Source: Prochloraceae cyanobacterium PL24a_bin.78 (lineage in GTDB: Bacteria; Cyanobacteriota; Cyanobacteriia; Cyanobacteriales; JANQIW01). From it: DNA of 30,371 bases. Below are positions 1,157 to 26,821 of this stretch, piece by piece. A program made the position numbers and the translations under genes. Position 1 is the stretch's first letter. Every line of letters begins with the position of its first letter. The stretch covers positions 1 through 30,371 of the forward strand of contig JANQIW010000095.1 in the NCBI GenBank assembly GCA_028281945.1, given 5' to 3'. The notes below the pieces were generated by a model, which did not search any database, was not told the DNA's origin, and saw only the letters and a program-made list of their open reading frames with translations.

Positions 1157-1480
1157 TTATGGCGAGCTACTATTCTGTTGAGTTTTTGGCAGAGAACTGG
1201 TCAAAGCTCGATGCACAGCTTCCGGCTCATGATCGATAACTTTGAGAAAATTCCTTGATGGGCCCGATGGCACACGGCGGCCTTGCTCCCAATCTTGGAG
1301 GGTTCTTAGGGAAACCCCAAAATAATCAGCAAAGACGTTCTGACTCATATTGAGCTTAAGACGGATACGCCGGACATTAATTTCTTCGGGGATATGAACA
1401 ACAGAGCCGTTGTCTTCTCCTCTAGCAAAGGCAAGTGCTTCTTCCATTCCCTTGATGAGACTTTCACCTAATTCGCTCAT
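1157..1480 (-). CDS. XRE-family HTH antitoxin (HigA-like)
   Basis: 107 aa. 'MSQNVFADYFGVSLRTLQDWEQGRRVPSGPSRNFL' is a classic XRE/Cro HTH with the 'Q.WE.G...P' signature. Its start overlaps the upstream toxin stop by 4 nt (ATGA). Local GC is about 45-47% against a background near 30%. Confidence 0.75.
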   Translation of the reverse strand: MSELGESLIKGMEEALAFARGEDNGSVVHIPEEINVRRIRLKLNMSQNVFADYFGVSLRTLQDWEQGRRVPSGPSRNFLKVIDHEPEAVHRALTSSLPKTQQNSSSP

Positions 1481-1821
1481 GTATTTTTCCTCCTATACAT
1501 TTCAACAATACTACTAGACAAAGTTTTCAGGATCTTCTTTTCCTTGTCTGTCATGTTTTCTTTCTGGGTTTTTGCATAAACACTCATCAGAAATACAGGT
1601 ATATCAACGCCGCTGAAAAAAGTAATGACGCGGTATCCACCACCTTTTCCCTTACCTTTGGCAGCTACACGCACTTTTCGCATACCGCCGGTACCGACTA
1701 TTTCCTCCCCTATATCTGGATTAGCCGCAATCAAATCGATAATGCTTTCACGCTCATCATCGGATATACCTAATTTCTTGGCACACCTTATAAATTCGGG
1801 CATTTCAACAACACTTTGCAT
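1477..1821 (-). CDS. RelE/ParE-superfamily toxin (HigB-like; toxin-first order with an XRE antitoxin)
   Basis: 114 aa. 'MPEFIRCAKKLG...GGYRVITFF...VFLMSVYAKTQKENMTDKE' matches HigB/RelE-like addiction-module killer proteins. The gene order (toxin upstream, HTH antitoxin downstream, 4-nt overlap) is the HigBA arrangement. The true start may be the internal Met at 1801-1803 (MPEF...). Confidence 0.75.
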   Translation of the reverse strand: MQSVVEMPEFIRCAKKLGISDDERESIIDLIAANPDIGEEIVGTGGMRKVRVAAKGKGKGGGYRVITFFSGVDIPVFLMSVYAKTQKENMTDKEKKILKTLSSSIVEMYRRKNT

Positions 1822-2019: not shown

Positions 2020-2093
<74 letters not shown>

Positions 2094-6069: not shown

Positions 6070-6105
6070 ATCAGAAATCTAACAGAAATCTAACAGAAAT
6101 TTAAT
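6070..6105. repeat. Tandem 11-nt repeat (TAACAGAAATC x3) in the convergent intergenic spacer
   Basis: 'cagaaatctaacagaaatctaacagaaatttaatc' lies between the 3' ends of the DUF547 gene and the RNB gene. Confidence 0.6.
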
Positions 6106-8017
6106 CAAAAGAGGAATAAGCAAAAGTTTGTTTTAACCTCTTTAATAAACTAGAAGCTGCCAATTGTTTAGCTTCTTTTTTGCTTTTACCATTACCTTTA
6201 TTGGTAAAAGTTTTATCTTCTAAAATAAGAGTTACTATACATTGAAAACCATTTGCTAATGACGAATATTTATAGTTAGGCACAGGCCAACTTAACTGTT
6301 GAGAAAGATTATTTAAAATAGCAATAGAATTGTCAGAAGATTCAAAAATTTCGTTAATATATTCTTCATTAAATTCTTCTCCCCAAAAATAATCTTCATC
6401 TTCAATCCATTCTTCTTCTTCCTCAATTTCGTCATTTTGTATTGCTAGCAAATTATTAGTATTGTCTGTATTTTTTTCTATTTTTGATGTATTTTGAAAA
6501 TTGAAATTTCTTTCTTCAATTGTTACTAATTCCTCTTCACAAAATGCCACTAACCATTGAGAAGCTGCGGATTGTTTAGCTTCTTTTTTAGAATTAGCAA
6601 TTTCAGGATTAAAAGTAGTTTCATCATCTACCACTAACCATGCAGCAAAAGGAGGTGCAGATAATTCTTCATAAATAAAATCTACTTGTTTGCCCATTTG
6701 TCTAGCAATTGAATTTAAAGCTTGGAGAAAATCTGAAGGATTTTTGTCCCCCCAATCTTTTAATTCTTCGAGTTTTAATTCATGCTTGAAAATGATTAAA
6801 GCGACATCTTTAAGAGTTAAAGTATTTTTATTAAATCTATTAATTATTTCAGGTAATAGTTTACCAATATTCTCATCATTAGCTACCTCTAAAAGTTTAG
6901 TAAATTCTTTAGCTGATAAACGAGAATAAATAGATTCATCTTGCAGATTTTGATTAATTATAGCTTGTGATTTTGCTTTCATAATCTCTTTTTTAGTTTG
7001 ACGAGTTTGTTCGCGATACTCATTAAGATGGTTGGCTATTTTTTCTAATTCTTCTTGAGTATATGGAATATTTTCTCCTTTAATTATAGACTTAATAATG
7101 CGATGATTAACTATATCTGCATATCTTCTAATAGGAGAAGTAAAGTGACAATAACTATCTAAATTTAAAGCAAAATGTCCTTCACAATTTTCTTGATAAA
7201 CCGCAGGTTTAAGATGGGATTGTAAATATTTTCTAATTAATTCGCTACTACCTAAATCTCTTAAACTTTTGATAAAAGTGTTTCTATCTTCAGGAATTTC
7301 TCCTGCTTTATGATTGCGATACATTCCTAGCTGGGTTTTTTCTAATAAAAAATTAGCAATAGCCATATTAGCTAAAATCATAAATTCAGCGATAATTTGC
7401 TGACTATTATATTGAATTTCTTTAGTAATATTTCCTTCTTCATCTAAGTTTAAATCCCCAATAGACATTGAACCAATTGCCCCTCTATCTTGACGAAGAT
7501 AATTTAATTTTTTAGCCCAAATTTCGCAATATTTTAAAAGAGGATATAATTGTTTTGATGGAGAAATTAAAGTTAAATCTGCCTCTTCATAAGCAAATCT
7601 TTTAATACTAATTAATAAGGTTTCTTGGATTTCAGTATTAACAATATTAGCACTAGAATCTAAAGTTATTTTTACAGTTAATGTAGGGCGATGTTTTCCT
7701 TCTAAAAGACTAGTTTTTTCTTCTGACAAGATTCTGGGAAACATAGGAATATTTCCTTTAGCTAAATAGACAGTTTCCACTCTTGTTAATGCTTCTTTGT
7801 CTAAGGCACTATTTTTATGAACATAAGCAGAGACATCTGTGATATGAATACTTAAAATTGCACCATTATTAATAATTTCAATCCAAATAGCATCATCTAA
7901 ATCTTTACTACTACTAGAGTCAATGGTAAAACCACATACCTGAGGGCGGCTTGAATAATCTATTGTAACTGTATTAGCTTCTGTTAGGACTTCTCTGGTA
8001 AATATTTTTTTAAACAT
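6101..8017 (-). CDS. RNB-domain 3'-5' exoribonuclease (RNase II/R family) with two C-terminal dsRNA-binding motifs and no CSD or S1 domains
   Basis: 638 aa. The RNB catalytic signature 'SSSKDLDDAIWIE...IHITDVSAYV' sits at the very N-terminus, so no cold-shock domains precede it. The C-terminus carries two DSRM units: '...PSDFLQALNSIARQMGKQVDFIYEE...SKKEAKQSAASQWLVAF' and '...NSIAILNNLSQQLSWPVPNYKY...KSKKEAKQLAASSLLKRLKQ'. An acidic linker (EEEEEWIEDEDYFWGEEF) separates them. Confidence 0.8.
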   Translation of the reverse strand: MFKKIFTREVLTEANTVTIDYSSRPQVCGFTIDSSSSKDLDDAIWIEIINNGAILSIHITDVSAYVHKNSALDKEALTRVETVYLAKGNIPMFPRILSEEKTSLLEGKHRPTLTVKITLDSSANIVNTEIQETLLISIKRFAYEEADLTLISPSKQLYPLLKYCEIWAKKLNYLRQDRGAIGSMSIGDLNLDEEGNITKEIQYNSQQIIAEFMILANMAIANFLLEKTQLGMYRNHKAGEIPEDRNTFIKSLRDLGSSELIRKYLQSHLKPAVYQENCEGHFALNLDSYCHFTSPIRRYADIVNHRIIKSIIKGENIPYTQEELEKIANHLNEYREQTRQTKKEIMKAKSQAIINQNLQDESIYSRLSAKEFTKLLEVANDENIGKLLPEIINRFNKNTLTLKDVALIIFKHELKLEELKDWGDKNPSDFLQALNSIARQMGKQVDFIYEELSAPPFAAWLVVDDETTFNPEIANSKKEAKQSAASQWLVAFCEEELVTIEERNFNFQNTSKIEKNTDNTNNLLAIQNDEIEEEEEWIEDEDYFWGEEFNEEYINEIFESSDNSIAILNNLSQQLSWPVPNYKYSSLANGFQCIVTLILEDKTFTNKGNGKSKKEAKQLAASSLLKRLKQTFAYSSFD

Positions 8018-8025
8018 AAATTAAA

Positions 8026-9393
8026 TTAATAATTGTTATTAGGAATTTCTAGATTTAAAAATTTAGTTAATTCTGGTTTAAATAAAAGCTTAATTTGTCC
8101 TGTAGGCCCATTTCTTTGTTTAGCAATAATAACTTCAGCGATTCCTCTATCTGGAGTATCTGGATTATAATATTCATCTCTATATAACATCATTACTAAA
8201 TCTGCATCTTGCTCAATAGATCCTGATTCTCTTAAATCTGATAACATCGGACGTTTATTATTTCTTTGTTCCACAGCCCGACTTAATTGTGAAAGGGCAA
8301 TGAGAGGAACGTTTAATTCCCTCGCTAAACCCTTTAAAGCACGTGTTATTCTAGATAATTCTTGTACACGGTTATCACTAGAACTGCCTTCCATCAACTG
8401 TAAATAATCTAATAAAATTAAACCTAATTCCTTTCTTTGGTCTGATTTTTGGTCTGATATTAAACGACGTAAATCCGATCTCATTTGCATCACAGTCAAA
8501 CTAGCATTATCATTAATATAAATAGGAAGGTCTGCTAAAGCTCCCACTGCTGCACCCAAAGGATCTAATTCCATTTGAGTTATGCGACCCGAACGTAACT
8601 TATTACTATCAATCCCTGTTTCGCCAGACAATAAACGGACAGATAATTGTTGTTTTGACATTTCTAAACTAAAGATTGCCACCATTAATTTCTCCTCAAG
8701 AGCAACATGATGGGCTATATTTAGGGCAAAACTAGTTTTTCCCATACTAGGGCGGCCAGCAATAATAATTAAATCCGATCGTCCTAAACCATTAGTCCTA
8801 GCATCTAAATCATAAAAACCAGTATTGATTCCGGGATTGCCAGTTTTGTTATACAACTTTTCAATCTCTTGAAAAGCATCAATCACCGTTTCAGAAATAG
8901 GGATTAAACCTTCTTGAGGACGCTTTTGAATCAGGTTAAAAATAGCTTTTTGAGAACTATTCATAACGGATTCAATTTCTTGAGTTGTATCATAACCTAA
9001 TTTTATAATTAGATGACCAGCTTTAATTAATTCACGACGTAAGAATTTATCCATTACTAAAGGGGCATGATGTTCAATTGTTATTGCTGAAACTGTACGA
9101 TCTACTAATTGTGTTAACTTTGTAGTTCCGCCTACTTCTTCTAAAAAACCTCGATCTAATAACCAAGTAGTTACTGTCATTAAATCAGTGGGTTTTCTTT
9201 GATTATATAAATATATTGCCCCTTCATAAATTTTTTTGTGAGCTTGGATATAAAAAGCTTCAGGATTGATTAAATTAACAACTCTTCCCATGGCTTCAGG
9301 ATCCAATAAAATACCTCCTAAAATCGCCTCTTCAGCATCAATATTTTGTGGTGGAAGAGAGTTTTGGGAAAATTGTGGTTTAAATTCTACCAT
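8026..9393 (-). CDS. dnaB: Replicative DNA helicase DnaB (intein-free)
   Basis: 455 aa. N-terminal DnaB domain 'NIDAEEAILGGILLDPEA'. Walker A 'IIIAGRPSMGKTSFALNIA'. Its stop lies only 8 bp upstream of the RNB gene start, so co-transcription is likely. Confidence 0.95.
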   Translation of the reverse strand: MVEFKPQFSQNSLPPQNIDAEEAILGGILLDPEAMGRVVNLINPEAFYIQAHKKIYEGAIYLYNQRKPTDLMTVTTWLLDRGFLEEVGGTTKLTQLVDRTVSAITIEHHAPLVMDKFLRRELIKAGHLIIKLGYDTTQEIESVMNSSQKAIFNLIQKRPQEGLIPISETVIDAFQEIEKLYNKTGNPGINTGFYDLDARTNGLGRSDLIIIAGRPSMGKTSFALNIAHHVALEEKLMVAIFSLEMSKQQLSVRLLSGETGIDSNKLRSGRITQMELDPLGAAVGALADLPIYINDNASLTVMQMRSDLRRLISDQKSDQRKELGLILLDYLQLMEGSSSDNRVQELSRITRALKGLARELNVPLIALSQLSRAVEQRNNKRPMLSDLRESGSIEQDADLVMMLYRDEYYNPDTPDRGIAEVIIAKQRNGPTGQIKLLFKPELTKFLNLEIPNNNY

Positions 9394-10293
9394 ATTAAAA
9401 ATAATAAATTTTTATTATTAAGATAGTAACCAAGATTATTATCATTAATCCCATTTACTAGCTATATATTATATAGTTTATTATTTTAACTTAAAAACAT
9501 GAGACTACTTTAGTTTAATTTTTATCTTCAGCTAAGGAGATAATTGTATCTAAATTTATTATTGTATCTTAAATTGTCTTTTGATAAAATCTGTTAACAC
9601 TATCAATAATAACCATAAAATTATGATGTTTTATCCTCGTTTTTAAAACAAAATTTTCCTCTTTAATTTTTCTTTCAAGGCTGTTATAATCTATTCTTCA
9701 AGTTAAGAATTGTATGTATCATTATATTTCTACTGATTTTTGGAGTAATATTAATTGTTATTATCTTAATTCTTGTTACCAAAAATGTCGAGAAAATGCC
9801 TCTGTTAAATTTTTCTATAAAAGTTAAAATTAAAATTAGACGGAAATAAATCCTACGCAAGAAATAAACCAAACTTTTTTTTTGAAAATTTGTTATATCA
9901 AATGGTCTTTAACAACGATAGAGTTAAAAAATCCCAAATCCAGGATAATTAACCAAAATTTATTCTCCCCATTCTTCCCATTTTCTCCATTCTCCCCTCA
10001 ATATCTATCACTATTAAAGAGAAACGATATTAACCATGTGATGAATATGAGTTTTTGGTTGGCTTGCTTGTTTGATTTGTGATTACTAATTATGATTTTT
10101 AAATTTGATTAACCTGACTCACAAAAATTTTTACAAAAAAAAGATATAGATAAAAATACATTTATTCTTATCTTTTTATGTTTATAGATTTTAAATAACC
10201 TAAATCAATTAGAAACTTAATATTTTTCAGGTAAATTTGGGAAAAGAAAAAACTCGATTTGATCATCGACTTATGACTTAAATACAAATTAAA

Positions 10294-12144
10294 TCAAGAT
10301 TCTCCTTTAAGCAATAATTCCATTCCTTTTGCCGTTTCGGCTTGAATTTTTAATTCATTACCAATGTCATCAGTAAGTTTTTTTAACTCTTCTCCTAAAC
10401 CTTGTGGCAATAAAACTTGTGTACTTTGAGCCGTTGCCAAAATCCCTGCAACTTCCAATAAACGTTGCAATAAAAGATTACGAGCTTCTTCGCATTTTTC
10501 TAAACTTTTCAACCAACCTTGAGGTAATTGATTGTATTGTAAAGACTGAGTTTCTAAATAAGATAAAGTTCGATCTAATCCATCTAATTGAATTGCTGCA
10601 TCGGCAGATACTTTAAGCAAATTAGATACATATCCCACTATTTCTTCTCGTTGTTCGGGAGTTTTTCTGGTATCAAACCAAATTTGACTAATGCGGACAA
10701 TATCGCTAAATAAATTACGGGCTGTAGTAGAATTTAAATCTTCCATAATTTCTACCACAATTTCTTGGAGTTTGGAGGGTAATTTTGATTGACTAGGCCC
10801 CGGAGTAAGTAATGGTTTTCCTATAGATTGATGAGCCAACAATAACAATCCTATGGCAAATAGCCCACTAAAACCTCCACTGACAAAGGATCCTACTCCC
10901 AAAATCGCCCCTGTTAAACCGTAAAAATTCTGAGGAATTGCTTTCCAAAGTTGATTTTTACTTAAAGCACGTACATAAATTTGTTTTTTAGCTAATTCTT
11001 CTACTACTGAATTAACTTGAGAGTCATCGAGACACACTAATGCTTTAGTTCCTGAAATAGTTTCTTTTAAACCCTCTCGTTGTGGGGATAAATTAAACAA
11101 CGCTCTAATTTTATCTAGGTTTTTTTCTTGTTTATCTTTATCTCCGTGAAGAGATTCTAACAGCAAATAGGTGGAAGGTTTAGAGACTATTCCTTTGCAT
11201 CCAGGACATATAGAAATTCCTAAAAAGGTTTCTGTTCCACAAACTAGACATGAATGATTGGATTTCTTTAAAGATTTAGCCATTCCACTCTTATCTATCA
11301 AAGTAATTCCTTGGCTTTTATTTTCAGATAATGCTTCCTCAAATCTAGCTACACTAGAAAAGCGATCGTTAGGATTAGCACAAGTAGCTTTAGCAATTAC
11401 TTCATCCAACCAAAAAGGAACATCTAGGCAAATATCTTTGACATGACAGCCTAAAGCTGGAAACTTTCCATCTAATGGTCGGTAAATTTCACCTGTAAGG
11501 GCAAAATATAAAGTCATTCCTAATGCAAATATATCGCCTTTAGAATTAATTTCTTTGCCATCTAGTACTTCTGGTGGAGTATATAATCCATCAAACAACC
11601 GCTTTCTTTCATTTTTACTTAGTTGATGTTCTATTCTGATAGAGCCAAAGTCACTTAAACGAGAATAACCATTGGATTCTAGAAAAATATTATTAGGTTT
11701 AATATTTCCGTGAATTATACCACGTCTATGAGCGGCGGCTAAAGCAGAAGCTATTTGTATACCAATAGAAACTACTTTATCTGAGGGTAAAACTCCTTCT
11801 TGTTTGATTATGGTTTGCAGGTTAGTCCCATCAACTAACTCCATAATTATGAGACTGCGATCAACTAAATCCATAATTATGAGAGTTTGGGAGTCAAAAT
11901 CTATATAATCGTAAGTTTGGATAATGTGAGGATGATTAAGAGAACGAGCTGCTATAACCCTTTTCTTAGTTTTTTCTTTACCTATTTTTGCTAAAATAGG
12001 AGGAGGTATTAATTGTTTTACAGCCACATTTTGTTTCAATTGAATGTCTTCGGCTTTGTAAACAACAGAATACCTGCCTCGTCCAATCTCCTTGATAATG
12101 GAATAACGGTCTTGTATAACTGTTCCGGGAGCAAAATAATTCAT
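10294..12144 (-). CDS. Membrane-anchored Hanks-type Ser/Thr protein kinase homologue with HGN replacing the catalytic HRD (predicted pseudokinase), a zinc ribbon, one TM helix and a helical C-terminal domain
   Basis: 616 aa. Gly-loop 'IGRGRYSVVY', beta3 Lys 'VAVKQL', DFG 'SDFGS', 'YTPPE' and 'DIFALGMTLY' are all present. The catalytic loop reads 'IIHGNIKPNNIFL' where HRDLKPxN is expected (DNA GGAAAT where CGNGAY is expected). After the kinase come 'CLVCGTETFLGISICPGCKG' (CxxC...CxxC), a TM segment 'LTGAILGVGSFVSGGFSGLFAIGLLLLA', and about 190 aa of helical C-terminus. Confidence 0.8.
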   Translation of the reverse strand: MNYFAPGTVIQDRYSIIKEIGRGRYSVVYKAEDIQLKQNVAVKQLIPPPILAKIGKEKTKKRVIAARSLNHPHIIQTYDYIDFDSQTLIIMDLVDRSLIIMELVDGTNLQTIIKQEGVLPSDKVVSIGIQIASALAAAHRRGIIHGNIKPNNIFLESNGYSRLSDFGSIRIEHQLSKNERKRLFDGLYTPPEVLDGKEINSKGDIFALGMTLYFALTGEIYRPLDGKFPALGCHVKDICLDVPFWLDEVIAKATCANPNDRFSSVARFEEALSENKSQGITLIDKSGMAKSLKKSNHSCLVCGTETFLGISICPGCKGIVSKPSTYLLLESLHGDKDKQEKNLDKIRALFNLSPQREGLKETISGTKALVCLDDSQVNSVVEELAKKQIYVRALSKNQLWKAIPQNFYGLTGAILGVGSFVSGGFSGLFAIGLLLLAHQSIGKPLLTPGPSQSKLPSKLQEIVVEIMEDLNSTTARNLFSDIVRISQIWFDTRKTPEQREEIVGYVSNLLKVSADAAIQLDGLDRTLSYLETQSLQYNQLPQGWLKSLEKCEEARNLLLQRLLEVAGILATAQSTQVLLPQGLGEELKKLTDDIGNELKIQAETAKGMELLLKGES

Positions 12145-12156
12145 AGTCGAGTGAAT

Positions 12157-12777
12157 TTAGAACCGTTGCTGATTAAAAGCTTCAATATCTTCTAAAACTG
12201 TTAGAGCATTATTACGCCAACCATCATTATTGGAGTAAATACGAAGGAATCTTTCTAGATTTATTTCTGCTTCATAATAAGAACCTATCAGATATTCAAA
12301 CATACCAGCATGGTATAAAGCTATGTAATTGTTTGGTTGATATTCTAACACTAAATTCATAATAGGCCCTGCTGATTCTTCATCTCCAGCATCGGCGATG
12401 GGACTCGCTAGGTTAAATATTACTGAAGCTGCATATTCTTTATGTCTGTAACATGGTAATTTTTCGATTAATTCTCTAGCCTCATCAATTTTCCCTGCCA
12501 AAGCGTAGCATCCAGCGGCATATGCTCTGCCTTCAATGGTATTGGGGTGGGGGTTAGAAAGGATTGCTGTTGTTACTTCTACAGAATTGCATTGAGGTTT
12601 GATGGAATTAAACCATTTTTCCCCTCTTGAGATATTTCTGGAGTTGTCTCGATGGGATGATATTTCTTGCTTAGTATAGTTTGATCTTGTTTGTGTTTCT
12701 GGGATAAAAGGGCGAGCCGCTAATATCAATGTACAAAGTCCGAGATAGGTAAATCCTAATTTATAAAGTAAACGCAT
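12157..12777 (-). CDS. Secreted TPR-like / helical repeat protein
   Basis: 206 aa. Signal-peptide-like N-terminus 'MRLLYKLGFTYLGLCTLILAA', then Ala/Tyr-rich helical repeats ('AYAAGCYALAGKIDEARELIEKL', 'ALYHAGMFEYLIGSYYEAEINLERF'). Ends 12 bp upstream of the kinase start. Confidence 0.5.
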   Translation of the reverse strand: MRLLYKLGFTYLGLCTLILAARPFIPETQTRSNYTKQEISSHRDNSRNISRGEKWFNSIKPQCNSVEVTTAILSNPHPNTIEGRAYAAGCYALAGKIDEARELIEKLPCYRHKEYAASVIFNLASPIADAGDEESAGPIMNLVLEYQPNNYIALYHAGMFEYLIGSYYEAEINLERFLRIYSNNDGWRNNALTVLEDIEAFNQQRF

Positions 12778-12855: not shown

Positions 12856-15486
12856 TTAGTTCAAGTTCATTTTTTTTGTTATTTTGGGGACTATTTTTAA
12901 AATTGGTTTAGCATCAACTCCTAGATTTCTAGCTTCTTCAAATAATTTCTTGACAAGTTGACTGTATTCTTGGCGAGTTATTTTTTCTTTGGATGCTTCT
13001 GACATTAGTCTTGCTGTATATTCTTGCAATACTACTACTTTGTCTGAGGGTAAATCTGAGCTTATGTTTTCTACTATTTGAGCTAATCCTTCTAAGGCGG
13101 TATCTTTTTCATAGCGATTGGCTATTTCTATCATTAATTTGGCAAACCTAAAAAATAGAGGTTTAAATTTTAAACCTTCAAGCATTGTACAACTTGCTTT
13201 TGGTGGGCAAATTTCACTGAGGATATTTTGATCTACGTCTTCAACTCCTATGGCTAAAAAGTTTAGTTTCTCTTCTGCAAAAGCTTCTTGAATTTTTTCT
13301 GCTGATTGTTGCCAGTTGTCATCAAGAGTACTACCTGCAATGGTGATGATCCAAGGTTGATAGTGTTGAATATTTTGCTCTTTAAAAATCTTTTGACGAT
13401 CGTCAATTACCTTAAGTGCTAATTCTAATCCTTCTCCTATGGCTGTGGATCCTTCTAATTCGACTTCAGTGAGGTTATAGTTTGCATTATCAGTAAAAGG
13501 TTTAATGGTTTTTACTGGTGTACCAAAGGTTATAATTGCTACTTCGATACACTTATTAGTATTTGGATCATTGCTTAATTGTTCTTTAAATTTATTGATC
13601 CCTTTGATTAATTCTTCCTTATACTCTGTTGACATGGAATCAGACGTGTCTATCAGTAATACTACTAAACACTTAGGTAAAGCTTCTTTTAGTCGAGGCT
13701 GAGTATATTCTCCGTTGCTTGGTAATTGGGATTGATTTGATGAAGTATCAAGCATTGGGGTAACAAATGCTTCCAAAATTTCCGAGCGTCCACCATCAGA
13801 GTTTACTAAAACATGGGGGAGTTGAATATTTGACCAATTATTGATTTTTAGGTAATTAAAATAATTATGAACACCACCAAGAGCTTGAATTTTAGATTGA
13901 ATTGATTCTGCATCTGCTTGATCTTGATACCATTGTGCTTGTGCTTGATTTTTGGCAATTTGTATATTGTCTTGAGATTCATATAGTTTCTTTTGTCGAT
14001 CTGTTTGAAATTCAATTAATTCCTCTCTTTGTTTTGTGAAGGCTTCTTGTTCTATCAGTTTTCTACGTTTTTCTTCATTTTCGATTTTAACTTGATAGCT
14101 TTCTGTTTTTTGTCTTTCTATTTCTCGCTCAGTTAAAATCTTCTCAAGTTCCTCTGGTAAATCTATTTCATTAATTAATGTATTAACACCTATAATACCA
14201 TATGACTTTAAGCTTCTTTTTATATATCCTTTTACATTTTGTGCTATCGTATTTCTCGCAGAATGAAAGTCTATAGCTTTGAATTCTTGTGCTGCACTCC
14301 TAAAATAATAACTTATATTTGGTTCTAAAACTTTTTTAATCAAATTTCTCATGCGATCATATGGCTTGACTATATATTCTTTACTATTTTCAACTTTTTC
14401 TAAATCTAATCCTTGTGAATTAACAGAGACAATACTAGCAATCATCTTAGGAGCATTTTCTGGTAGTATTTGAATAATCTGGGTAAGTTCGATGTAAAAT
14501 TCAAATCCATCTTTGGAACGAAGGTTTAAAGGTTCGAGATTTAAATCATAGTTCATTGCAGTAGACTGAGACTCTTCTTTTTTTGACCAATCTAATGCTA
14601 TTTCGTTAGTAGGAACAAGATTTATCTTCTGTAGATAAGTATTTATAGGATATTTATTAGGTCGTAAAGGTTCTTTATGTATTCCTTTATATTCTTTATC
14701 TACTAAATACTCTTCACCATTTTTTAATTCTTTATCTTTTTTTGTCGTCTCCTTACAAGGAGGAGTTTTACCAACATAAGATATCACAACTCCTACTGTT
14801 CCAGTAGGAATTACTGTTAATGGAACTTTTTCTATTTTAACAAACCAAGGATTTAAATACCAGTTACCCACAGGAATTATTTCTTCTTGTAAACCTTTAC
14901 ACCCACCATTATCAATAAATGCTTGGGCATCTTGAAATTTGTTATGATCTTCTATACATGGACCTGCTATTTCGCCTTCTGGAATTGGTAGACCATCTTT
15001 AGTTGTAACAATGCCAATCATATCTGTTTCTATATGATAGACCTTTAAATCTTCTGGATTTACATTATGTTCTTTAGCATTGGCAGAAGTGATTACAGTA
15101 AAAAGTTTGGTATTAATTCTGTATGTTCCTGCTCTTAAGATTCCTAATTGTTCCCCTTTTTCCCCACCATTGGCTAAGAAAGCAACTCCATCTTGAAAAT
15201 CACTACAGGGAACTATTCTTCCTAAATTTTGTGTATAACTTTCTGCCTTTGTTTCTCCATCTTTAGCTACTACTAAACCAATTTCTCCTTGAGGAATTTC
15301 TATGGCAGGTACTATCTCAACTTCCATAAGCCAAGGACTATAAAAATGTGTACCAGGTGGAAGAATCTCTGCTTGATAACCAGTTTCCCCATTAGTAGCA
15401 ATTTGTTTTCCTGGTGGTAATTTAGAGCCAACTTTTTTATACTTAATTCCTACTTGGTTTGGTCCAATTTCAATGGTTTTTAACAT
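12856..15486 (-). CDS. SPFH/flotillin-like protein with triplicated N-terminal 'IPxGEIG..KDG' modules and a coiled coil, fused to a C-terminal von Willebrand factor A (vWA) domain
   Basis: 876 aa. SPFH-like 'GPNQVGIKYKK...ILPPGTHFYSPWLMEVEIV'. Three repeats: 'IPQGEIGLVVAKDG', 'IPEGEIAGPCIEDH' / 'IGIVTTKDG', 'IPTGTVGVVISYVG'. Flotillin-type EA-rich coiled coil 'ERQKTESYQVKIENEEKRRKLIEQEAFTKQREELIEFQTDRQKK'. vWA with a MIDAS 'LLIDTSDSM' (DxSxS), '...GSTAIGEGL' and 'IITIAGSTLDDN'. An extra helical tail of about 130 aa follows. Confidence 0.7.
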   Translation of the reverse strand: MLKTIEIGPNQVGIKYKKVGSKLPPGKQIATNGETGYQAEILPPGTHFYSPWLMEVEIVPAIEIPQGEIGLVVAKDGETKAESYTQNLGRIVPCSDFQDGVAFLANGGEKGEQLGILRAGTYRINTKLFTVITSANAKEHNVNPEDLKVYHIETDMIGIVTTKDGLPIPEGEIAGPCIEDHNKFQDAQAFIDNGGCKGLQEEIIPVGNWYLNPWFVKIEKVPLTVIPTGTVGVVISYVGKTPPCKETTKKDKELKNGEEYLVDKEYKGIHKEPLRPNKYPINTYLQKINLVPTNEIALDWSKKEESQSTAMNYDLNLEPLNLRSKDGFEFYIELTQIIQILPENAPKMIASIVSVNSQGLDLEKVENSKEYIVKPYDRMRNLIKKVLEPNISYYFRSAAQEFKAIDFHSARNTIAQNVKGYIKRSLKSYGIIGVNTLINEIDLPEELEKILTEREIERQKTESYQVKIENEEKRRKLIEQEAFTKQREELIEFQTDRQKKLYESQDNIQIAKNQAQAQWYQDQADAESIQSKIQALGGVHNYFNYLKINNWSNIQLPHVLVNSDGGRSEILEAFVTPMLDTSSNQSQLPSNGEYTQPRLKEALPKCLVVLLIDTSDSMSTEYKEELIKGINKFKEQLSNDPNTNKCIEVAIITFGTPVKTIKPFTDNANYNLTEVELEGSTAIGEGLELALKVIDDRQKIFKEQNIQHYQPWIITIAGSTLDDNWQQSAEKIQEAFAEEKLNFLAIGVEDVDQNILSEICPPKASCTMLEGLKFKPLFFRFAKLMIEIANRYEKDTALEGLAQIVENISSDLPSDKVVVLQEYTARLMSEASKEKITRQEYSQLVKKLFEEARNLGVDAKPILKIVPKITKKMNLN

Positions 15487-15583: not shown

Positions 15584-16579
15584 TCAATTTCCATCAATTC
15601 TGCATTTTTCACATCGAGATAAAAAGCCTTTAAAATTCTCTCTCCAAATTCCTAACTCTTCCTCTTCATCTGGATCCTTAGCTATACTGAATTGTAATGA
15701 AGGTAGATGTCCTCGTCTTGCTTGTAAATCAAAGGTGAAATCTTCATGTTTGAGCCATTCTTCATTTTGATACCAACCTACTAGTTCACCGAATTGATAG
15801 TAAAGTATGGGATTAAATTCTCCTTTTTTTCCTCCGATACTCAACCAAAGATCTCTTTGAACACTAAAACCAAAATGCCCTTTTGATTTATTTAACCAAA
15901 GATTATTGATGATTTTGAGGTCTTTACAAGGAAAATTTTCTATATCTTTAGGCTTTAACCAACCTTCTTTCTCTCTTTTGGCTACTTTTAGGATAACTTT
16001 TGCTGTTTCTATATCTGCTTCTTTCCATTGTCCTGCTTCGAGATATTCTCGTAATTGTTCATAATTGCCGATTATTTTGTCTTGATTAGGTTTCCTATAA
16101 GTATCTTGATGTGGTTGATATCCTATAGTTTCATTGGGCATCTCTAAAATTTCTGCGTCATACTGGATTCTTTGATTTCTAGTAGAATGAGAGAAGTTTT
16201 CAATTTCGTTAATAAGATGATCTACTTCAAACAATTCATCCCTCAATCTTTGAGACGAAGAAATTTGAGGATTTGTCGTTCTTGGAGGAAGATAATTCCT
16301 ATCCTGAAAATTCCCATAACTATCATATTCTGGAGGATATTGTCTGGATTTTGTGGATGAATCTTTTGTTTCTGCTTCTTCTGCCATTTCTGCTTCTAAA
16401 AGCTGGATGTCTTTTTCGCATTCTTCTATTTCTTCATCTAATTCTTCTATTTCGATTTTTAAGTCTCCAATTAATTTCAGATTAGATCTATTTTTGGCAA
16501 TATCTTGTTTATATTGAGCACGTCTTCTTTTTAAAGTATCCCTCGTTTTTTTGAGAATTTCCAAAGTTTCTTTTGACAT
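15584..16579 (-). CDS. Coiled-coil protein with a C-terminal GUN4-like (porphyrin-binding) domain
   Basis: 331 aa. The N-terminal ~70 aa is a charged coiled coil (LKIEIEELDEEIEECEKDIQLLEAEMAEEAE). C-terminal 'LREYLEAGQWKEADIETAKVIL...DLKIINNLWLNKSKGHFGFSVQRDLWLSIGG...FGELVGWY...RRGHLPS' matches the GUN4 domain signature. Confidence 0.7.
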   Translation of the reverse strand: MSKETLEILKKTRDTLKRRRAQYKQDIAKNRSNLKLIGDLKIEIEELDEEIEECEKDIQLLEAEMAEEAETKDSSTKSRQYPPEYDSYGNFQDRNYLPPRTTNPQISSSQRLRDELFEVDHLINEIENFSHSTRNQRIQYDAEILEMPNETIGYQPHQDTYRKPNQDKIIGNYEQLREYLEAGQWKEADIETAKVILKVAKREKEGWLKPKDIENFPCKDLKIINNLWLNKSKGHFGFSVQRDLWLSIGGKKGEFNPILYYQFGELVGWYQNEEWLKHEDFTFDLQARRGHLPSLQFSIAKDPDEEEELGIWRENFKGFLSRCEKCRIDGN

Positions 16580-17022
16580 TTATTATCTCCAAATAGTTAT
16601 GTTATCGTGATTTTATCCAACTCCTCGATGGATAAATTTAAAATAGAATCTAGATACAATCTAATTTTAGCTGAAAAAATAGTCATTTAATAAAAGAGAA
16701 ATAAATTAACGATCGTCAAAATAGTTACAACCTTATAGATTCATTTCCATCGATAAAAGAGTGTCTATTTTTGTTGCTTTAATTAATTCCAAGAGTGTTA
16801 ACTCACCCATCTACTATTAATATAATAGGATAAACATGATATAAATAATTATTTATCATCAAGAAAGATCGATGGAGAATAACTTTGAAAAATCCATTAT
16901 CCTATCCAACAAAAGCCTTAAAGTAAGTTATAATATTTAGTATATAGTTATCCTAATATATCAACAGGATCATAACTTCTCTGTTATCAAATAATGTGTC
17001 TATTGAGTATAGTAATAAAACT

Positions 17023-17051
17023 TTGACATTTTGAAAAAAAACTGTTATAAT
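17023..17051 (+). promoter_or_regulatory. Perfect sigma70-consensus promoter TTGACA-N17-TATAAT
   Basis: TTGACA at 17023-17028, a 17-nt spacer, TATAAT at 17046-17051. It lies about 280 bp upstream of the pentapeptide gene start. Confidence 0.5.
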
Positions 17052-17263
17052 AGGATTTAAGACAAGGAATTAAGGGTTTTTGAAATGAAAAACTTTAGGA
17101 ATCCACTCGACCATATAGACAAGCGTATTTTCAGTATTACAAAAACTGTTGTTTAAAAAAAGTTATACATCAAGTCAAACATTAAACGAACACATAAACA
17201 AACATTAGTAAGAGAGAATTAAAAATAAGGAACAGGACTTACGGAAAAAGTAAGGCTAAATAC

Positions 17264-17292
17264 TATATCTAGGGTATTGTACTCTAGATATA
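17264..17292. promoter_or_regulatory. Perfect 9-bp inverted repeat TATATCTAG-N11-CTAGATATA (candidate operator)
   Basis: Found by reading the sequence. It sits about 40-65 bp upstream of ATG 17329. A third CTAG ('tctatctagaaa') lies just downstream. Confidence 0.45.
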
Positions 17293-17328
17293 ACTTTCTA
17301 TCTAGAAAATCAACCCAGAATTAAGGTA

Positions 17329-17826
17329 ATGAATGATCAAGAATTAACAGAATTAATTAATAAACAAATCGTAGCTGAAATCCGAAATAGATATATACAA
17401 GGAGAAAGAGATTTTCAGGGAGCACAATTACAAGGAATTAACTTAAGTGGATTGAATTTAGCTGGAGTAGATTTAAGAGGAGCAAACTTATCAAAAGCTA
17501 ATTTATCAGGAACAAATTTAAGGGGAGCAAAATTAGAAAAAGCAAATCTAAGATCAGCGAAATTAAATAAAACTTGTTTAGTAGAAGCTAATTTAGTCAA
17601 AACAGACTTAAGAGATGCTAATTTGATCGAAGCAAAATTAAATCGGGCAAATCTTAGAGAAGCTAACCTTAACAAGACTTTATTAATTGAGGCAAATCTT
17701 GATGAAGCTAATCTACAAGAAACACAACTGATTGGCTCTTACTTAATCAGAATTAGTGTAATGGGAGTACATTTTCAGGAAGCAGAATATCAAAAGCAAA
17801 TTCAATTACTGCAAAAAATTGTTTAA
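17329..17826 (+). CDS. Pentapeptide-repeat protein
   Basis: 165 aa with about 20 tandem A(D/N)LxX pentapeptides ('GANLSKANLSGTNLRGAKLEKANLRSAKLNKTCLVEANLVKTDLRDANL...'). Confidence 0.85.
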   Translation: MNDQELTELINKQIVAEIRNRYIQGERDFQGAQLQGINLSGLNLAGVDLRGANLSKANLSGTNLRGAKLEKANLRSAKLNKTCLVEANLVKTDLRDANLIEAKLNRANLREANLNKTLLIEANLDEANLQETQLIGSYLIRISVMGVHFQEAEYQKQIQLLQKIV

Positions 17827-17934
17827 AACTTAAAGTTATACCTAAATCAAACCTAAAATAGGCCTGAAGACAAACATCATGACTTGATAATAAAAGGGAA
17901 GAAAGAAATAAAATCAAAAAAATCAAGAAAAATC

Positions 17935-18180
17935 ATGAACTATACTGTTTTAGATAAGATTAATGAGAATCAAATTACGACTCAAGTACAAATTGAATTA
18001 CGTCAAAGAGATAGAAATTTTCAAGAAGTAGGATTGTTAGGAGTTAATTTAGAAGGATTAGATTTAAGTCAAATAGATTTAAAAGAAGTAAAGTTGTCTA
18101 ATGGAAAACTGATAAAAGTGTTATTGATATTTTTTATTTATATAGTTGTTCTTGGATATTCTTATTCTAAATGTGTTTGA
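17935..18180 (+). CDS. Truncated pentapeptide-repeat paralog with a hydrophobic C-terminal anchor
   Basis: The N-terminus 'MNYTVLDKINENQITTQVQIELRQRDRNFQEVGLLGVNLEGLDLSQIDL' aligns with the N-terminus of the 17329 protein ('MNDQELTELINKQIVAEIRNRYIQGERDFQGAQLQGINLSGLNLAGVDL'). It ends in a TM-like tail 'LIKVLLIFFIYIVVLGY'. Start chosen at the internal Met. No clear SD. Confidence 0.4.
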   Translation: MNYTVLDKINENQITTQVQIELRQRDRNFQEVGLLGVNLEGLDLSQIDLKEVKLSNGKLIKVLLIFFIYIVVLGYSYSKCV

Positions 18181-18243
18181 AGTTATTGATTGATTTTTAT
18201 TATATATTTTGATGTATTTAAACAGAAGATAGAGGGGGTTGAT

Positions 18244-18444
18244 ATGAAAGAAGTGTCTTCACAAATTATTAGTTTAGTTGAAAGTCTAAGAGATAAACAA
18301 CAAGATAGATTAACTATTACAAGTCATCTGGCTGATAAAATTCATAAAGTGCAAATCTTACTTGAAGAAAATTCCATTTTAGAGGCAAAAAAAATCATTG
18401 CTGATGCCTTACAAGAGTGTGAAGAGTTAATTAGAATAGTTTAA
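18244..18444 (+). CDS. Small helical protein (~66 aa), paralog A of an uncharacterised family
   Basis: Start taken at 'MKEVSS' preceded by the strong SD 'agagggggttgatATG'. Paralogous to the 18784 ORF. Confidence 0.45.
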   Translation: MKEVSSQIISLVESLRDKQQDRLTITSHLADKIHKVQILLEENSILEAKKIIADALQECEELIRIV

Positions 18445-18783: not shown

Positions 18784-18984
18784 ATGGATAACTTATCTAA
18801 TAGTTTAGAATTTTTAGCCAATACTATCAAAGAAAATAAGCAGGAAAGATTCACTAGATTAACTCAACTTGCAGATACAATGTATCAAGCAAAAATTTTA
18901 CTAAAGGAAGGAAAAAATAATGAGGCGGAAGAGTTTATAGAAATGGCAATTGATAATTGTCAAAAGATTTTATTAATAGGTTAA
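18784..18984 (+). CDS. Small helical protein (~66 aa), paralog B
   Basis: SD 'tagggagatgataaaATG'. Aligns with paralog A: 'KQQDRLTITSHLADKIHKVQILLEE...EAKKII..A...C' against 'KQERFTRLTQLADTMYQAKILLKE...EAEEFI..A...C'. Confidence 0.45.
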   Translation: MDNLSNSLEFLANTIKENKQERFTRLTQLADTMYQAKILLKEGKNNEAEEFIEMAIDNCQKILLIG

Positions 18985-25690: not shown

Positions 25691-26821
25691 TTAATTAGCT
25701 TGATAAATTTTTAATCTTTCTTGATATTTAGCGACTAAAGACTTCATTGATTTGACATTTTGGTTATAATACCCCTTAGATAGATGAGAGTAACAAGTAA
25801 GGGAAGCCCAAACACGACAAGATTTAATAATAGCTTCTTTCAAATTACCTTGTTTTAATTTTCGCAGAGCACCTATCTCTTCTAATTTAGAAATAGCCCA
25901 TTTATCTTGTTCTTGAGGTGCAAAAGAAGTCATATTTTTGGCATTAAAATCCAAAATTTGATAGCGACCAAAAGCAGTAGAACAAGTTTTTTTCCCACTT
26001 TCGGTGATATAGGTAATACATTTTTCGGGATGAGTGGTTAAATCATCAACTATTTCCCCACCAAATAAAGTTTTATAACCTAAAGGATGGAGGGTTCCTT
26101 CTGCCCATGCAATGGTATCTAAAAATGCTTTTTCTTGGGGAGACAAAGAAGATAAAGCAGTAGTAGCTTTAGCAGGATTATATTTAATACTTATTTTCTC
26201 TTGATAAACTGGTTCTACCTGTTGAGTTTTTTGTTCTAATTTAGGATGAGGATTACGCTCGGATGATAGTGAGTTTAAACCAAAAGCAATACTAAATACA
26301 GAAGCCACCGCCATTGACATCATGCCAAGAGAAATTACCTTTTTTTTCTTTTTAAGATTTCTTTTATTGACTTTTGCTAAATCCTCTGGAATAGTAATAA
26401 CTATAAATTTGCCAGAATTTAAATTTTTCATAAAGAAACGTTTAGATCCTTGTAAATCTCGAGTATCCTTTAAGAGGAAATCTAGAATATTACCTTGAGA
26501 ATCTATTGCTTTATAAATATAGATATCTTGACCTTGAATAACTATTTTTCTTTCAACAACTTGCCAATCGGAAATTTTCTTGGCTTCATACTTCATTTTC
26601 TTAACTTGGGAAGAATAACGTCTAACTAAGGAAAAGAATGTGACACGATCGAGATCAAATCCCCTTTGAGACATGATCTTCTCAATTTTACGGTAGTTTT
26701 TATCGTAGTAAACATACCAGGCAACGCAAAGTAAGAGCATCTCTTCTTTTGTTTCTTTCCAAGAGCTTTTCAACTGAGCTTGGAGTTTATGATTATATTT
26801 ATTATTTAAAGTTGAACTCAT
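25691..26821 (-). CDS. Chimeric ORF: degenerate IS6-family transposase N-terminal fragment fused in frame to a SAR-type (signal-anchor) lambda-R-like lysozyme / lytic transglycosylase
   Basis: Residues ~28-140 'LLLCVAWYVYYDKNYRKIEKIMSQRGFDLDRV...WQVVERKIVIQGQDIYIYKAIDSQGNILDFLLKDTRDLQGSKRFFMKNL' align with the IS26 transposase block 'ILWAVRWYCKYGISYRELQEMLAERGVNVDHST...WHMDETYVKVNGRWAYLYRAVDSRGRTVDFYLSSRRNSKAAYRFLGKIL', but DETY reads VERK. A weakly hydrophobic A/G/S-rich TM 'MMSMAVASVFSIAFGL' follows. The C-terminus 'KAFLDTIAWAEGT...GYKTLFGGE...HP...CSTAFGRYQIL...AIIKSCRVWASL' matches lambda R endolysin 'KAFLDMLAWSEGT...GYDVIVGGE...HP...STGAGRYQLL...AIDRCSNIWASL'. Confidence 0.65.
   Translation of the reverse strand: MSSTLNNKYNHKLQAQLKSSWKETKEEMLLLCVAWYVYYDKNYRKIEKIMSQRGFDLDRVTFFSLVRRYSSQVKKMKYEAKKISDWQVVERKIVIQGQDIYIYKAIDSQGNILDFLLKDTRDLQGSKRFFMKNLNSGKFIVITIPEDLAKVNKRNLKKKKKVISLGMMSMAVASVFSIAFGLNSLSSERNPHPKLEQKTQQVEPVYQEKISIKYNPAKATTALSSLSPQEKAFLDTIAWAEGTLHPLGYKTLFGGEIVDDLTTHPEKCITYITESGKKTCSTAFGRYQILDFNAKNMTSFAPQEQDKWAISKLEEIGALRKLKQGNLKEAIIKSCRVWASLTCYSHLSKGYYNQNVKSMKSLVAKYQERLKIYQAN

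Follow-up and report, generated by a model that had tools for sequence, protein, structure and literature searches.

A GUN4-like protein paired with a long SPFH protein in cyanobacteria: a putative adaptor or sensor of a two-gene module

We analyzed a stretch of 30,371 nucleotides (nt) from the Prochloraceae cyanobacterium PL24a_bin.78 (contig JANQIW010000095.1; the whole stretch is called the window), in which a gene for a GUN4-like protein of 331 amino acids (aa; 15584..16579, minus strand) lies directly 5' of a gene for an 876-aa protein with SPFH and von Willebrand factor A (vWA) domains (12856..15486, minus strand). The same order of genes, [X-GUN4-like] then [long SPFH], recurs in cyanobacteria at no fewer than 13 independent loci, with the two genes adjacent and co-directional each time, and the window locus very probably belongs to the module that this pair defines. 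The GUN4-like protein would be a non-enzymatic adaptor or sensor, the first subunit of a two-gene module of the conflict or signalling type, a reading of the sequences towards which we lean, if only slightly. To our knowledge, GUN4 is known almost entirely as a porphyrin-binding cofactor of Mg-chelatase, and its many cyanobacterial paralogs have until now been regarded as no more than generic "tetrapyrrole sensors".

A recurrent pair of GUN4-like and long SPFH genes

We defined the module as a GUN4-like gene located directly 5' of, and co-directional with, the gene for a long (at least 764 aa) SPFH protein that has N-terminal beta-repeats and no transmembrane (TM) segment. The window falls within this definition, with a gap of 97 nt between the two genes on the same strand. 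Adjacent and co-directional pairs were found in Moorena producens (GUN4 protein of 276 aa, SPFH-vWA protein of 853 aa), Moorena sp. SIO3I6 (277 and 876 aa), three metagenome contigs (L166-168; 272 and 856 aa), the Nostoc-like contigs L003/L004 (275 aa and 926/938 aa, then DUF4407), and Nostochopsis (a CHAT-GUN4 fusion of 393 aa and an SPFH protein of 945 aa, then DUF4407). Further pairs are present in Stigonema (L005), Iningainema (L007), Microseira (L009/L010), Okeania (L012), and Nostocaceae L041, L068, as well as in L085.

The pairing was then quantified from both sides. Scanning one genome per species with the alignment of the SPFH partner gave 80 loci, and a GUN4 open reading frame (ORF) was present in 7 of these (L005, L007, L009, L010, L012, L041, and L068), each time directly 5' and on the same strand; all 7 have long (at least 764 aa) cyanobacterial SPFH forms. 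The remaining ~70 loci hold flotillin/YqiK-like genes encoding 600-760 aa, from Nostocales, Chloroflexota, and Verrucomicrobiota, with unrelated upstream genes (e.g., atpC in Nostoc); two loci (L008 and L015) carry no upstream sequence at all. From the GUN4 side, the clade alignment gave 80 metagenome loci of GUN4 paralogs, only one of which has an SPFH neighbor (L085, the closest relative). When the GUN4-like cores were compared with each other, the nearest neighbor of each SPFH-linked core was itself linked in 12 out of 12 cases (permutation p <= 2e-4). These results of the co-occurrence analysis, a check proposed in an earlier note on this DNA, bear out the link drawn there between the GUN4 gene and the flotillin-vWA assembly, since the pair recurs in independent loci and is missing from ordinary flotillin-like relatives. 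They support a functional tie between the GUN4-like protein and the downstream SPFH-vWA gene, as far as it can be judged from gene neighborhoods. In Stigonema L005, a second GUN4-domain ORF (621 aa; L005:13153-15015) and a second vWA-like segment (L005:11745-12266) lie 3' of the first pair, and the module may be duplicated or extended there.

The SPFH-vWA partner was identified by Pfam matches (Band_7 and VWA), an AlphaFold2 model, Foldseek, and its adjacency to the GUN4 gene. It contains no hydrophobic segment, and the model (mean predicted local distance difference test score, pLDDT, of 77.6) shows beta-rich repeats (aa 1-240), an SPFH core (aa ~277-442), a 90-aa helix (aa 445-535), a disordered linker, the vWA domain (aa 605-770), and a C-terminal helical bundle. 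The number of N-terminal repeat units (~100-150 aa each) differs between homologs and reaches ~4 in L005. The top Foldseek matches of the model were Major Vault Protein (MVP) chains, over ~680-750 columns with an E-value of 1e-10 and the same domain order, and next came prohibitin, erlin, HflK/C, QmcA, and stomatin, SPFH proteins that form cages; the global TM-scores to MVP are low (0.12-0.19). True homology to MVP was rejected, as there is no Pfam Vault match and the bacterial MVPs of a 2019 preprint (10.1101/872010) are a different family; the likeness appears to be a resemblance of domain order and architecture only.

The C-terminus is variable across the SPFH family and consists of a vWA domain, a CshA-repeat-like region, a DUF4407 fusion, or none of these. 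The vWA domain is of the TerY/YegL type, and homologs are labelled YegL by JGI. Its metal-ion-dependent adhesion site (MIDAS) keeps the DxSxS motif and the Thr; 'TDG' is changed to 'ITGS'/'IAGS' (Asp to Gly or Ala) in the window protein and in all aligned vWA-bearing homologs, which suggests that the metal site is altered or lost. As for DUF4407, a 444-aa protein with several TM segments by eye is encoded 3' of the SPFH gene in Nostocales loci (L003:10068-11402 and L171:10611-11945), and some Moorena proteins (~1025 aa; P0205-P0207) carry the domain as a fusion at the C-terminal end of SPFH; DUF4407 is a candidate for another membrane-acting output of the module.

GUN4 fold and pocket residues

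The GUN4-like ORF, the first gene of the module, is supported by the ORF list, by Pfam, and by the gene call in L001 (Logan contig, run SRR20820736), a second and independent assembly of the same locus that gives an identical GUN4 gene call and the same three downstream genes. The source cyanobacterium is low in GC (~31%). Pfam family PF05419 (GUN4) matches aa 172-295 with an E-value of 1.3e-38 (132.8 bits, against a cutoff of 29.2). No further credible Pfam domain and no NCBIfam match was found in the 331-aa protein, close homologs have no NCBIfam match either, and the protein has no hydrophobic or TM segment. Because it contains no enzymatic or other Pfam or NCBIfam domain, 'stand-alone' is a fair label.

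The core (aa 167-297; 15689..16081, minus strand) has the 'cupped hand' of GUN4, as delimited by Pfam, alignments to PDB entries, Foldseek, hhalign, and the clade alignment. By sequence, the protein matches solved Gun4 structures with E-values of 3e-16 to 8e-15 (Thermosynechococcus 1z3x, 2.8e-16; Synechocystis 1y6i, 7.7e-15; Chlamydomonas 4ykb was also matched). In an AlphaFold2 model built from the clade alignment, the pLDDT of aa 172-297 is mostly 80-92, and Foldseek retrieved 14 GUN4 chains at a probability of 1.00, including 4xkc, 1z3x, 1y6i, and 7e2r; the highest target-normalized TM-score (0.75) was obtained with Arabidopsis GUN4. Alignment of the core to canonical orthologs with hhalign reached a probability of 99.9%. 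The earlier note was therefore right in placing a stand-alone GUN4 domain at exactly these ORF coordinates, at the head of a cluster and directly 5' of the flotillin-vWA gene.

The residues that contact the pigment are a different matter. In Synechocystis Gun4, mutation of Arg214 abolishes porphyrin binding and this residue was called absolutely essential for both porphyrins, with contributions from Arg217, Ser125, Gln126, and a hydrophobic "greasy palm" (PMC1084334). Bilin binding depends on Asn211 of the LxNxLR motif, a residue that cyanobacterial paralogs characteristically lack; the N219G variant of Chlamydomonas GUN4 no longer binds bilin and still binds porphyrin (PMC10156173). Neither the window protein nor any other member of its clade has the LxNxLR motif, which leaves Asn211 and Arg214 without an equivalent, and it is kept in none of the 75 GUN4-like paralog cores that we extracted. 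Where the canonical sequence reads GHLP-LSNQLRGVR, the window protein has GHLP-SLQFSIAK (alignments and hhalign); the canonical orthologs retrieved have a C-terminal part of the form ...GHLPLSNQLRGVRV...HPAW. Whether the query was the single sequence or a profile built from 11 clade members, all alignments to solved Gun4 end at GHLP, and the profile-profile alignment past this point sets L-S-N-Q-L-R-G-V-R opposite S-(gap)-L-Q-F-S-I-A-K with no confidence. Ser125 and Gln126 correspond to Glu203 and Lys204 in the window protein.

The hydrophobic palm and the alpha6/alpha7 loop, on the other hand, could be mapped one to one with HMMER, and ~15 of the 17 alignable positions are still hydrophobic. 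The pairs (Gun4 > window) are F105 > W185, L116 > I196, V135 > I213, F138 > F216, L143 > L221, I146 > I224, W150 > W228, F160 > F238, V162 > V240, W167 > W245, W183 > W269, W189 > W275, F196 > F281, W198 > F283, L207 > L292, and P208 > P293. The clade also has features of its own, namely an 8-aa insertion between alpha5 and alpha6 with invariant G250, G253, and F255 (clade alignment), the ending of the core (GHLPSLQF in the window protein, GHLPLxNxLR in canonical Gun4), and an acidic loop with a conserved C-terminal helix (aa 298-331; 15587..15688, minus strand; clade alignment and AlphaFold2). This helix, modelled at aa 305-325 with the clade invariants W312, F316, K317, F319, L320, and E324, stands where canonical Gun4 has helices alpha7/alpha8; neither the HMMER profile nor hhalign gave a confident alignment between them, with nothing aligned beyond GHLP.

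These data bear on whether the protein could simply be the organism's genuine Gun4 (Ycf53), a Mg-chelatase cofactor with an unusual N-terminus. It does have the Pfam GUN4 domain and the GUN4 fold. It has no LxNxLR, and GUN4_N (PF16416), the N-terminal helical domain of cyanobacterial orthologs that is present in some of the canonical orthologs retrieved for comparison, gave no match at E <= 0.1; its core shares only ~36% identity with canonical cores, compared with 55-67% between canonical orthologs and the Synechocystis core, and all of its nearest relatives are paralogs with fused signalling or death domains. On motif and architecture, this possibility is effectively refuted: going by its sequence, the window protein is not the Gun4 of the chlorophyll pathway.

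It is harder to judge whether the core nevertheless senses a pigment. According to the earlier note, and to Kaur et al. (2020), who had already proposed for cyanobacterial multidomain proteins that GUN4 senses tetrapyrroles (PMC7159879), the core would bind a porphyrin, a bilin, or a chlorophyll catabolite, for example one that damaged thylakoids or photosystems release, and relay this to the SPFH-vWA assembly, a possibility compatible with the module proposed here. The fold is kept (Foldseek), as is the hydrophobicity of most palm and loop positions; because the palm is kept and the Chlamydomonas N219G variant still binds porphyrin (PMC10156173), binding of some hydrophobic ligand is possible. 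Palm conservation, however, is needed for folding anyway. The loss of equivalents of Arg214 (PMC1084334) and Asn211 (PMC10156173) and the change of Ser125 and Gln126 to Glu and Lys count against sensing, and both papers predict inefficient protoporphyrin (Proto) or bilin binding in paralogs without these residues; the invariant insertion and C-terminal helix of the clade suggest a different binding surface. The alignment of pocket residues thus went largely against the tetrapyrrole-sensing input of the earlier note, which is not supported, and left the hydrophobic palm in its favor; we consider such sensing doubtful. A more general caution follows, as a "GUN4 domain" need not mean "binds porphyrin", and here the relevant residues are gone.

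Hairpin, linker, and exchangeable N-termini

The region in front of the core had been described in the earlier note as a long coiled-coil stalk. Charged helices are indeed present, limited to a helical hairpin of ~75 aa, which is followed by a disordered linker of ~90 aa (AlphaFold2, heptads). The hairpin (aa 1-78; 16346..16579, minus strand) is predicted from the model, heptads, and composition to be a charged, antiparallel two-helix coiled coil, a putative adaptor or oligomerization module; its helices span aa 2-29 and aa 34-78 (pLDDT 83-93), the heptad signal is confined to aa ~1-70, where 48% of the residues are charged, and weak Foldseek matches to antiparallel coiled coils were obtained (e.g., the seryl-tRNA synthetase arm and Kif21A). 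The linker (aa 79-166; 16082..16345, minus strand) is polar (Pro/Ser/Thr/Asn/Gln/Gly 43%) and of low confidence, with pLDDT values below 50 at aa 78-86, 89-120, and 129-166. In homologs the corresponding linker is Pro-rich and of variable length (clade alignment), and the best homologs of the window protein, of 270-310 aa, likewise consist of a helical N-terminus, a Pro-rich linker, GUN4, and the conserved tail.

All homologs with an organism name (90 of 90) are cyanobacterial. Other members fuse the core to CHAT, TIR, caspase, trypsin-like, Ser/Thr-kinase, or EAD domains (PF00656, PF12770, PF13676, PF13365, PF00069, PF19955, and PF19961); the window protein has no such domain, and no EAD was matched in it by Pfam, and it is placed in that radiation by sequence. 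Among the SPFH-linked GUN4 proteins, the N-terminal modules assigned by Pfam are EAD1 (L005), EAD8 (P0019), caspase (L009, L010, and L085), TRADD-N with CHAT (L012), CHAT (P0005), and Ser/Thr kinase (L041 and L068); where nothing was recognizable, as in the window protein, L007, Moorena, and Nostoc, the N-terminus is the hairpin.

In two types of locus the hairpin has a counterpart on a neighboring gene. In L003, the caspase is encoded by a separate gene just 5' of GUN4, and its C-terminal 67 residues (aa 279-345) resemble the N-terminal hairpin of the neighboring GUN4 family with 55-60% identity. In Moorena-type loci, a 231-aa protein encoded directly 5' of GUN4 has an N-terminal hairpin that shares ~31% identity with that of the neighboring GUN4 protein and 83% with the N-terminus of P0002, which is the window protein's closest GUN4 homolog. 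Because the hairpin matches one on the product of the adjacent gene in these two locus types, it behaves like an adaptor; the same adaptor on the products of adjacent genes is also the pattern described for EADs (PMC7159879). For the window hairpin itself, we infer an adaptor role from its position and predicted structure, not from its sequence. The Moorena-type upstream protein is conserved, with 227-231 aa and no Pfam family (L166:6462-7157, L002:9314-9997, and L165:6451-7146), and its C-terminal part contains …KDPGVDFKHRLKVALPIVPMLVEYEGEIELGSGF….

Downstream genes, proposed function, and known systems

The co-directional run in the window consists of GUN4, a 97-nt gap, SPFH-vWA, a 78-nt gap, a TPR-like gene, a 12-nt gap, and a Ser/Thr-kinase gene. 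The TPR-like protein (206 aa; 12157..12777, minus strand) was recognized by sub-threshold TPR matches and has an N-terminal hydrophobic anchor or signal at aa 3-21. The kinase-like protein (616 aa; 10294..12144, minus strand; Pfam Pkinase, E-value of 2.4e-36) keeps the Gly-loop, VAVK, DFG, and PPE motifs and continues with a CLVC..CPGC zinc ribbon after the kinase domain, one Gly-rich TM helix (aa 413-431), and a C-terminal helical region; its hinge region contains the near-tandem duplication 'QTLIIMDLVDRSLIIMELVDG'. Kinases recur in related loci, fused to GUN4 next to SPFH (L041 and L068) or as a separate gene 3' of SPFH (L010, L041, L068, and the window), and those of related loci match the window kinase at the domain level only. 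This recurrence is a Rosetta-stone-type hint that GUN4, SPFH, and the kinase may act together; the TPR-like and kinase genes were treated as accessory components.

From the variable N-termini and the constant pair, we propose a mechanism whose specifics are tentative and may well prove wrong. Gene 1 would provide a [variable N-terminal module]-linker-[GUN4-like core] and gene 2 a very large, cytoplasmic SPFH protein without TM segments, of flotillin/Major-Vault-Protein-like architecture and with a variable C-terminus. The GUN4-like core, as the constant part, would link gene 1 to the SPFH scaffold, either by docking on the oligomeric scaffold or through a hydrophobic ligand that gates this docking, and the N-terminal module would supply or recruit the output. 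In the window copy, this output would be reduced to the ~75-aa hairpin on its ~90-aa tether, recruiting a partner in trans or oligomerizing; a possible output would run through a TerY-P-like signalling arm made up of the vWA domain and the membrane-anchored kinase-like/zinc-ribbon protein encoded further 3'. A role in conflict, regulated cell death, or stress signalling rather than in chlorophyll biosynthesis is suggested by the effector repertoire and the genomic contexts (mobile elements and defence islands) of the relatives. In a bolder version, which we regard as speculative and unlikely, the core would have been exapted from tetrapyrrole binding to become the loading or docking subunit of a soluble vault-/flotillin-like SPFH cage, holding death and signalling enzymes (caspase, CHAT, TRADD-N, or kinase) on or within the cage via matched hairpins or by fusion. 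The result would be a 'death-scaffold' or immune system of cyanobacteria whose trigger might be a hydrophobic danger ligand, for instance pigment set free when thylakoids are damaged. If true, this would be a prokaryotic analogue of a cargo-loaded vault, previously unrecognized.

Several results weigh against an adaptor or sensor in a two-gene conflict module. On the side of the pair, a fairly long SPFH gene (L013) has no GUN4 within 6 kb, none lies in the ~1 kb available 5' of the gene in L006, and a caspase-GUN4 gene of Microcystis has no SPFH neighbor and sits in a defence island (type I restriction-modification, HEPN/MNT, HigBA, and PIN). Linked cores have a mean identity of 55% among themselves versus 47% to other paralogs, a modest margin, and they are monophyletic in one neighbor-joining tree and have one intruder in another; because bootstrap support is only 11-24% (122 columns), we relied on the nearest-neighbor statistic and do not claim a robust clade. 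A physical interaction between the GUN4-like and SPFH proteins is something that we infer with synteny as the sole basis. In the window, no second copy or partner of the hairpin was found among all ORFs of at least 40 aa, and the hairpin matches neither the Nostoc-type nor the Moorena-type hairpin hidden Markov models and has no significant similarity to either coupling family. The window locus has no effector domain, no mobile-element genes stand next to the pair, and PADLOC gave no match there beyond a non-specific kinase model set. The TPR-like gene has no homolog in any related locus and is locus-specific, and the kinase-like protein has HGNIKPNN in place of HRDxKxxN, with the catalytic Asp changed to Asn (HER3-like), so that it is possibly a pseudokinase.

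The surroundings of the pair differ between the window and its relatives. The window copy lies among ordinary genes (dnaB and genes for an RNB-dsRBD protein, a pentapeptide protein, an epimerase, PPK2, and CobQ), and signs of mobile elements or toxin-antitoxin systems are limited to a transposase of the IS240 type at a distance of ~9 kb and a RelE/Xre pair at ~14 kb. Relatives are found with Tn7-like TnsA/TnsB/TniB, ParAB, a type IV secretion system (T4SS) coupling protein, DO-GTPase-like genes (confined to Moorena-type relatives), integrase, and HigBA; the closest full-length homologs lie between ParAB and the T4SS coupling protein inside Tn7-like elements, and the context of L003 includes ParAB, integrase, and HigBA. 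No relatives were found on viral contigs, and the plasmid database gave only generic flotillin N-terminal matches. In L166/L167/L168 and L002/L165, ParAB and Tn7-like TnsA/TnsB/TniB are located 5' of the pair, and 3' of it follow an 88-aa protein, a T4SS coupling protein (TraG/VirD4-like), proteins of 252, 276, and 305 aa (the last DO-GTPase-like), and an 828-aa protein; the whole string possibly represents a single large mobile element that includes the module. A PADLOC 'PD-T4-6' match of the GUN4 region (E-value of 8e-42), with many more for the kinase, was rejected as evidence of defence because the PD-T4-6 set is a broad Ser/Thr kinase collection, one member of which is a kinase-GUN4 fusion.

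A setting among ordinary chromosomal genes such as those for DnaB, the epimerase, and PPK2 would suit a housekeeping microdomain, in which SPFH organizes domains of the thylakoid or plasma membrane (FtsH, photosystem II repair) and the GUN4-like protein delivers or buffers pigment. Cyanobacterial SPFH proteins have been implicated in domains of photosystem II biogenesis and repair (PMC9950537), and porphyrin-loaded canonical GUN4 associates with membranes (PMC2757182). The distribution of the pair is patchy, however, not universal, neither of its two proteins has a TM segment, the pigment-binding residues are gone, and relatives carry caspase, CHAT, TRADD-N, or EAD modules in mobile elements, so that we find such a function highly unlikely. 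The pair might instead serve integrative or conjugative elements as cargo or machinery (maintenance, exclusion, or anti-defence), with the window copy as a domesticated or stranded remnant. The position of the closest full-length homologs in Tn7-like elements and the ParAB, integrase, and HigBA genes of L003 fit this idea, whereas the distance of such genes in the window (the nearest at ~9 kb and ~14 kb), the lack of viral-contig relatives, and the generic flotillins of the plasmid database do not, and its chance is, if anything, smaller still. The mobile-element context as such does not separate the readings because defence systems are themselves typical cargo of mobile elements.

Other features of the window were recorded alongside. 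The 749-nt divergent intergenic region upstream of the GUN4 gene (16580..17328), in which no ORF was found, is the presumed promoter region; a consensus promoter scan was uninformative, as shuffled sequences had more promoter-like sites and no minus-strand intergenic gap held a terminator-like site. A 900-nt AT-rich stretch between the kinase gene and dnaB (9394..10293) has no ORF of at least 60 aa on the strand of the cluster and several weak promoter-like matches. Directly 3' of dnaB (8026..9393), a 638-aa protein (6101..8017, minus strand) has an RNB (RNase II/R) domain and two C-terminal dsrm domains, an architecture (RNB with double-stranded RNA-binding domains, dsRBD) that seemed unusual. 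On the plus strand, a truncated paralog (17884..18180) of the adjacent 165-aa pentapeptide-repeat gene (17329..17826) and two paralogs of 84 and 66 aa that look helical (18190..18444 and 18784..18984; blastp E-value of 3e-9) lie in a very AT-rich region (GC 0.24). The RelE-like toxin and Xre/MqsA-like helix-turn-helix antitoxin (1157..1821, minus strand) are located beside tRNA-Val(GAC) (2020..2093, plus strand), and the IS240-family DDE transposase is at 25691..26821 (minus strand).

Together, the window locus and related loci delineate a partnership, specific and open to testing, in which a GUN4-like core goes with a giant SPFH protein that has no TM segments and caspase, CHAT, TRADD-N, kinase, and EAD modules share one slot. 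If this partnership is physical, it would offer a handle on the ligands of GUN4 paralogs, on what large bacterial SPFH assemblies scaffold, and on the control of cyanobacterial orthocaspases and CHAT proteases.

Compared with Gun4/Ycf53 (Synechocystis Sll0558 and T. elongatus Gun4; PDB 1y6i, 1z3x, 4xkb, and 7e2t), the window protein shares the core fold, the FGFSVQR and GHLP motifs, and the hydrophobic palm; it differs by the lack of GUN4_N and LxNxLR, the 8-aa insertion, the different C-terminal helix, the hairpin and disordered linker, the SPFH genomic partner, and a context free of chlorophyll-biosynthesis genes. It shares features with the cyanobacterial GUN4 paralogs (Synechocystis sll1380 / 'SynGUN4b/c') of Rockwell & Lagarias (2023), which likewise lack the bilin/porphyrin signature residues and are restricted to cyanobacteria; the SPFH-linked subgroup and the hairpin and effector N-termini are not discussed there.

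On the partner's side, SPFH systems with an operon partner (HflK/C-FtsH, QmcA-YbbJ, the YqiK-YqiJ SPFH-NfeD pairs, and flotillins) have the same SPFH core and very long helix, as in cage-formers, and a small partner gene is directly upstream here too. In contrast, the window SPFH protein has no TM anchor, its upstream partner is GUN4-like and without TM segments rather than NfeD-like, and a vWA domain and a helical bundle are added. MVP has beta-repeats, an SPFH 'shoulder', and a long helix in the same order over the ~680-750 columns aligned. The TerY-P triad consists of a TerY-type vWA protein, a PP2C phosphatase, and a Ser/Thr kinase with a C-terminal zinc ribbon (Anantharaman 2012, as summarized in PMC11090510). 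The window operon also has a YegL/TerY-type vWA and a Ser/Thr-kinase-like protein directly followed by a CxxC..CxxC zinc ribbon, whereas no PP2C phosphatase gene was found, the vWA is fused to an SPFH scaffold and has its last MIDAS Asp replaced, the kinase has HGN and a TM helix, and a TPR-like gene lies in between.

The conflict systems of Kaur, Burroughs, Iyer & Aravind (2020, 2021) include GUN4 as a cyanobacteria-specific module, a proposed tetrapyrrole sensor, in VMAP-ternary, iSTAND2, TERNS3, and TRADD-N proteins (PMC7159879, PMC8195603). The pairing of GUN4 with SPFH and the matched hairpins are apparently absent from the literature that we surveyed; the fusions of GUN4 to death and signalling domains and the sensor idea were already known. 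No SPFH/flotillin partner appears in PMC7159879 or PMC8195603, where 'SPFH' occurs in a reference list only. Unlike those systems, the window locus lacks an NTPase core such as MoxR or STAND (DnaB apart, neither the cluster nor the rest of the window contains an AAA+/MoxR, STAND, or GTPase gene), and the window copy bears no recognizable effector or EAD; the constant partner here is the SPFH scaffold. The linked relatives nevertheless use the same domains (caspase, CHAT, TRADD-N, Ser/Thr kinase, EAD1, and EAD8) and follow the same logic of a 'constant component + variable effector' (EACC1-caspase and EACC2), with matching adaptors on the products of adjacent genes, and they share the bias to filamentous cyanobacteria and the mobile-element and defence-island contexts.

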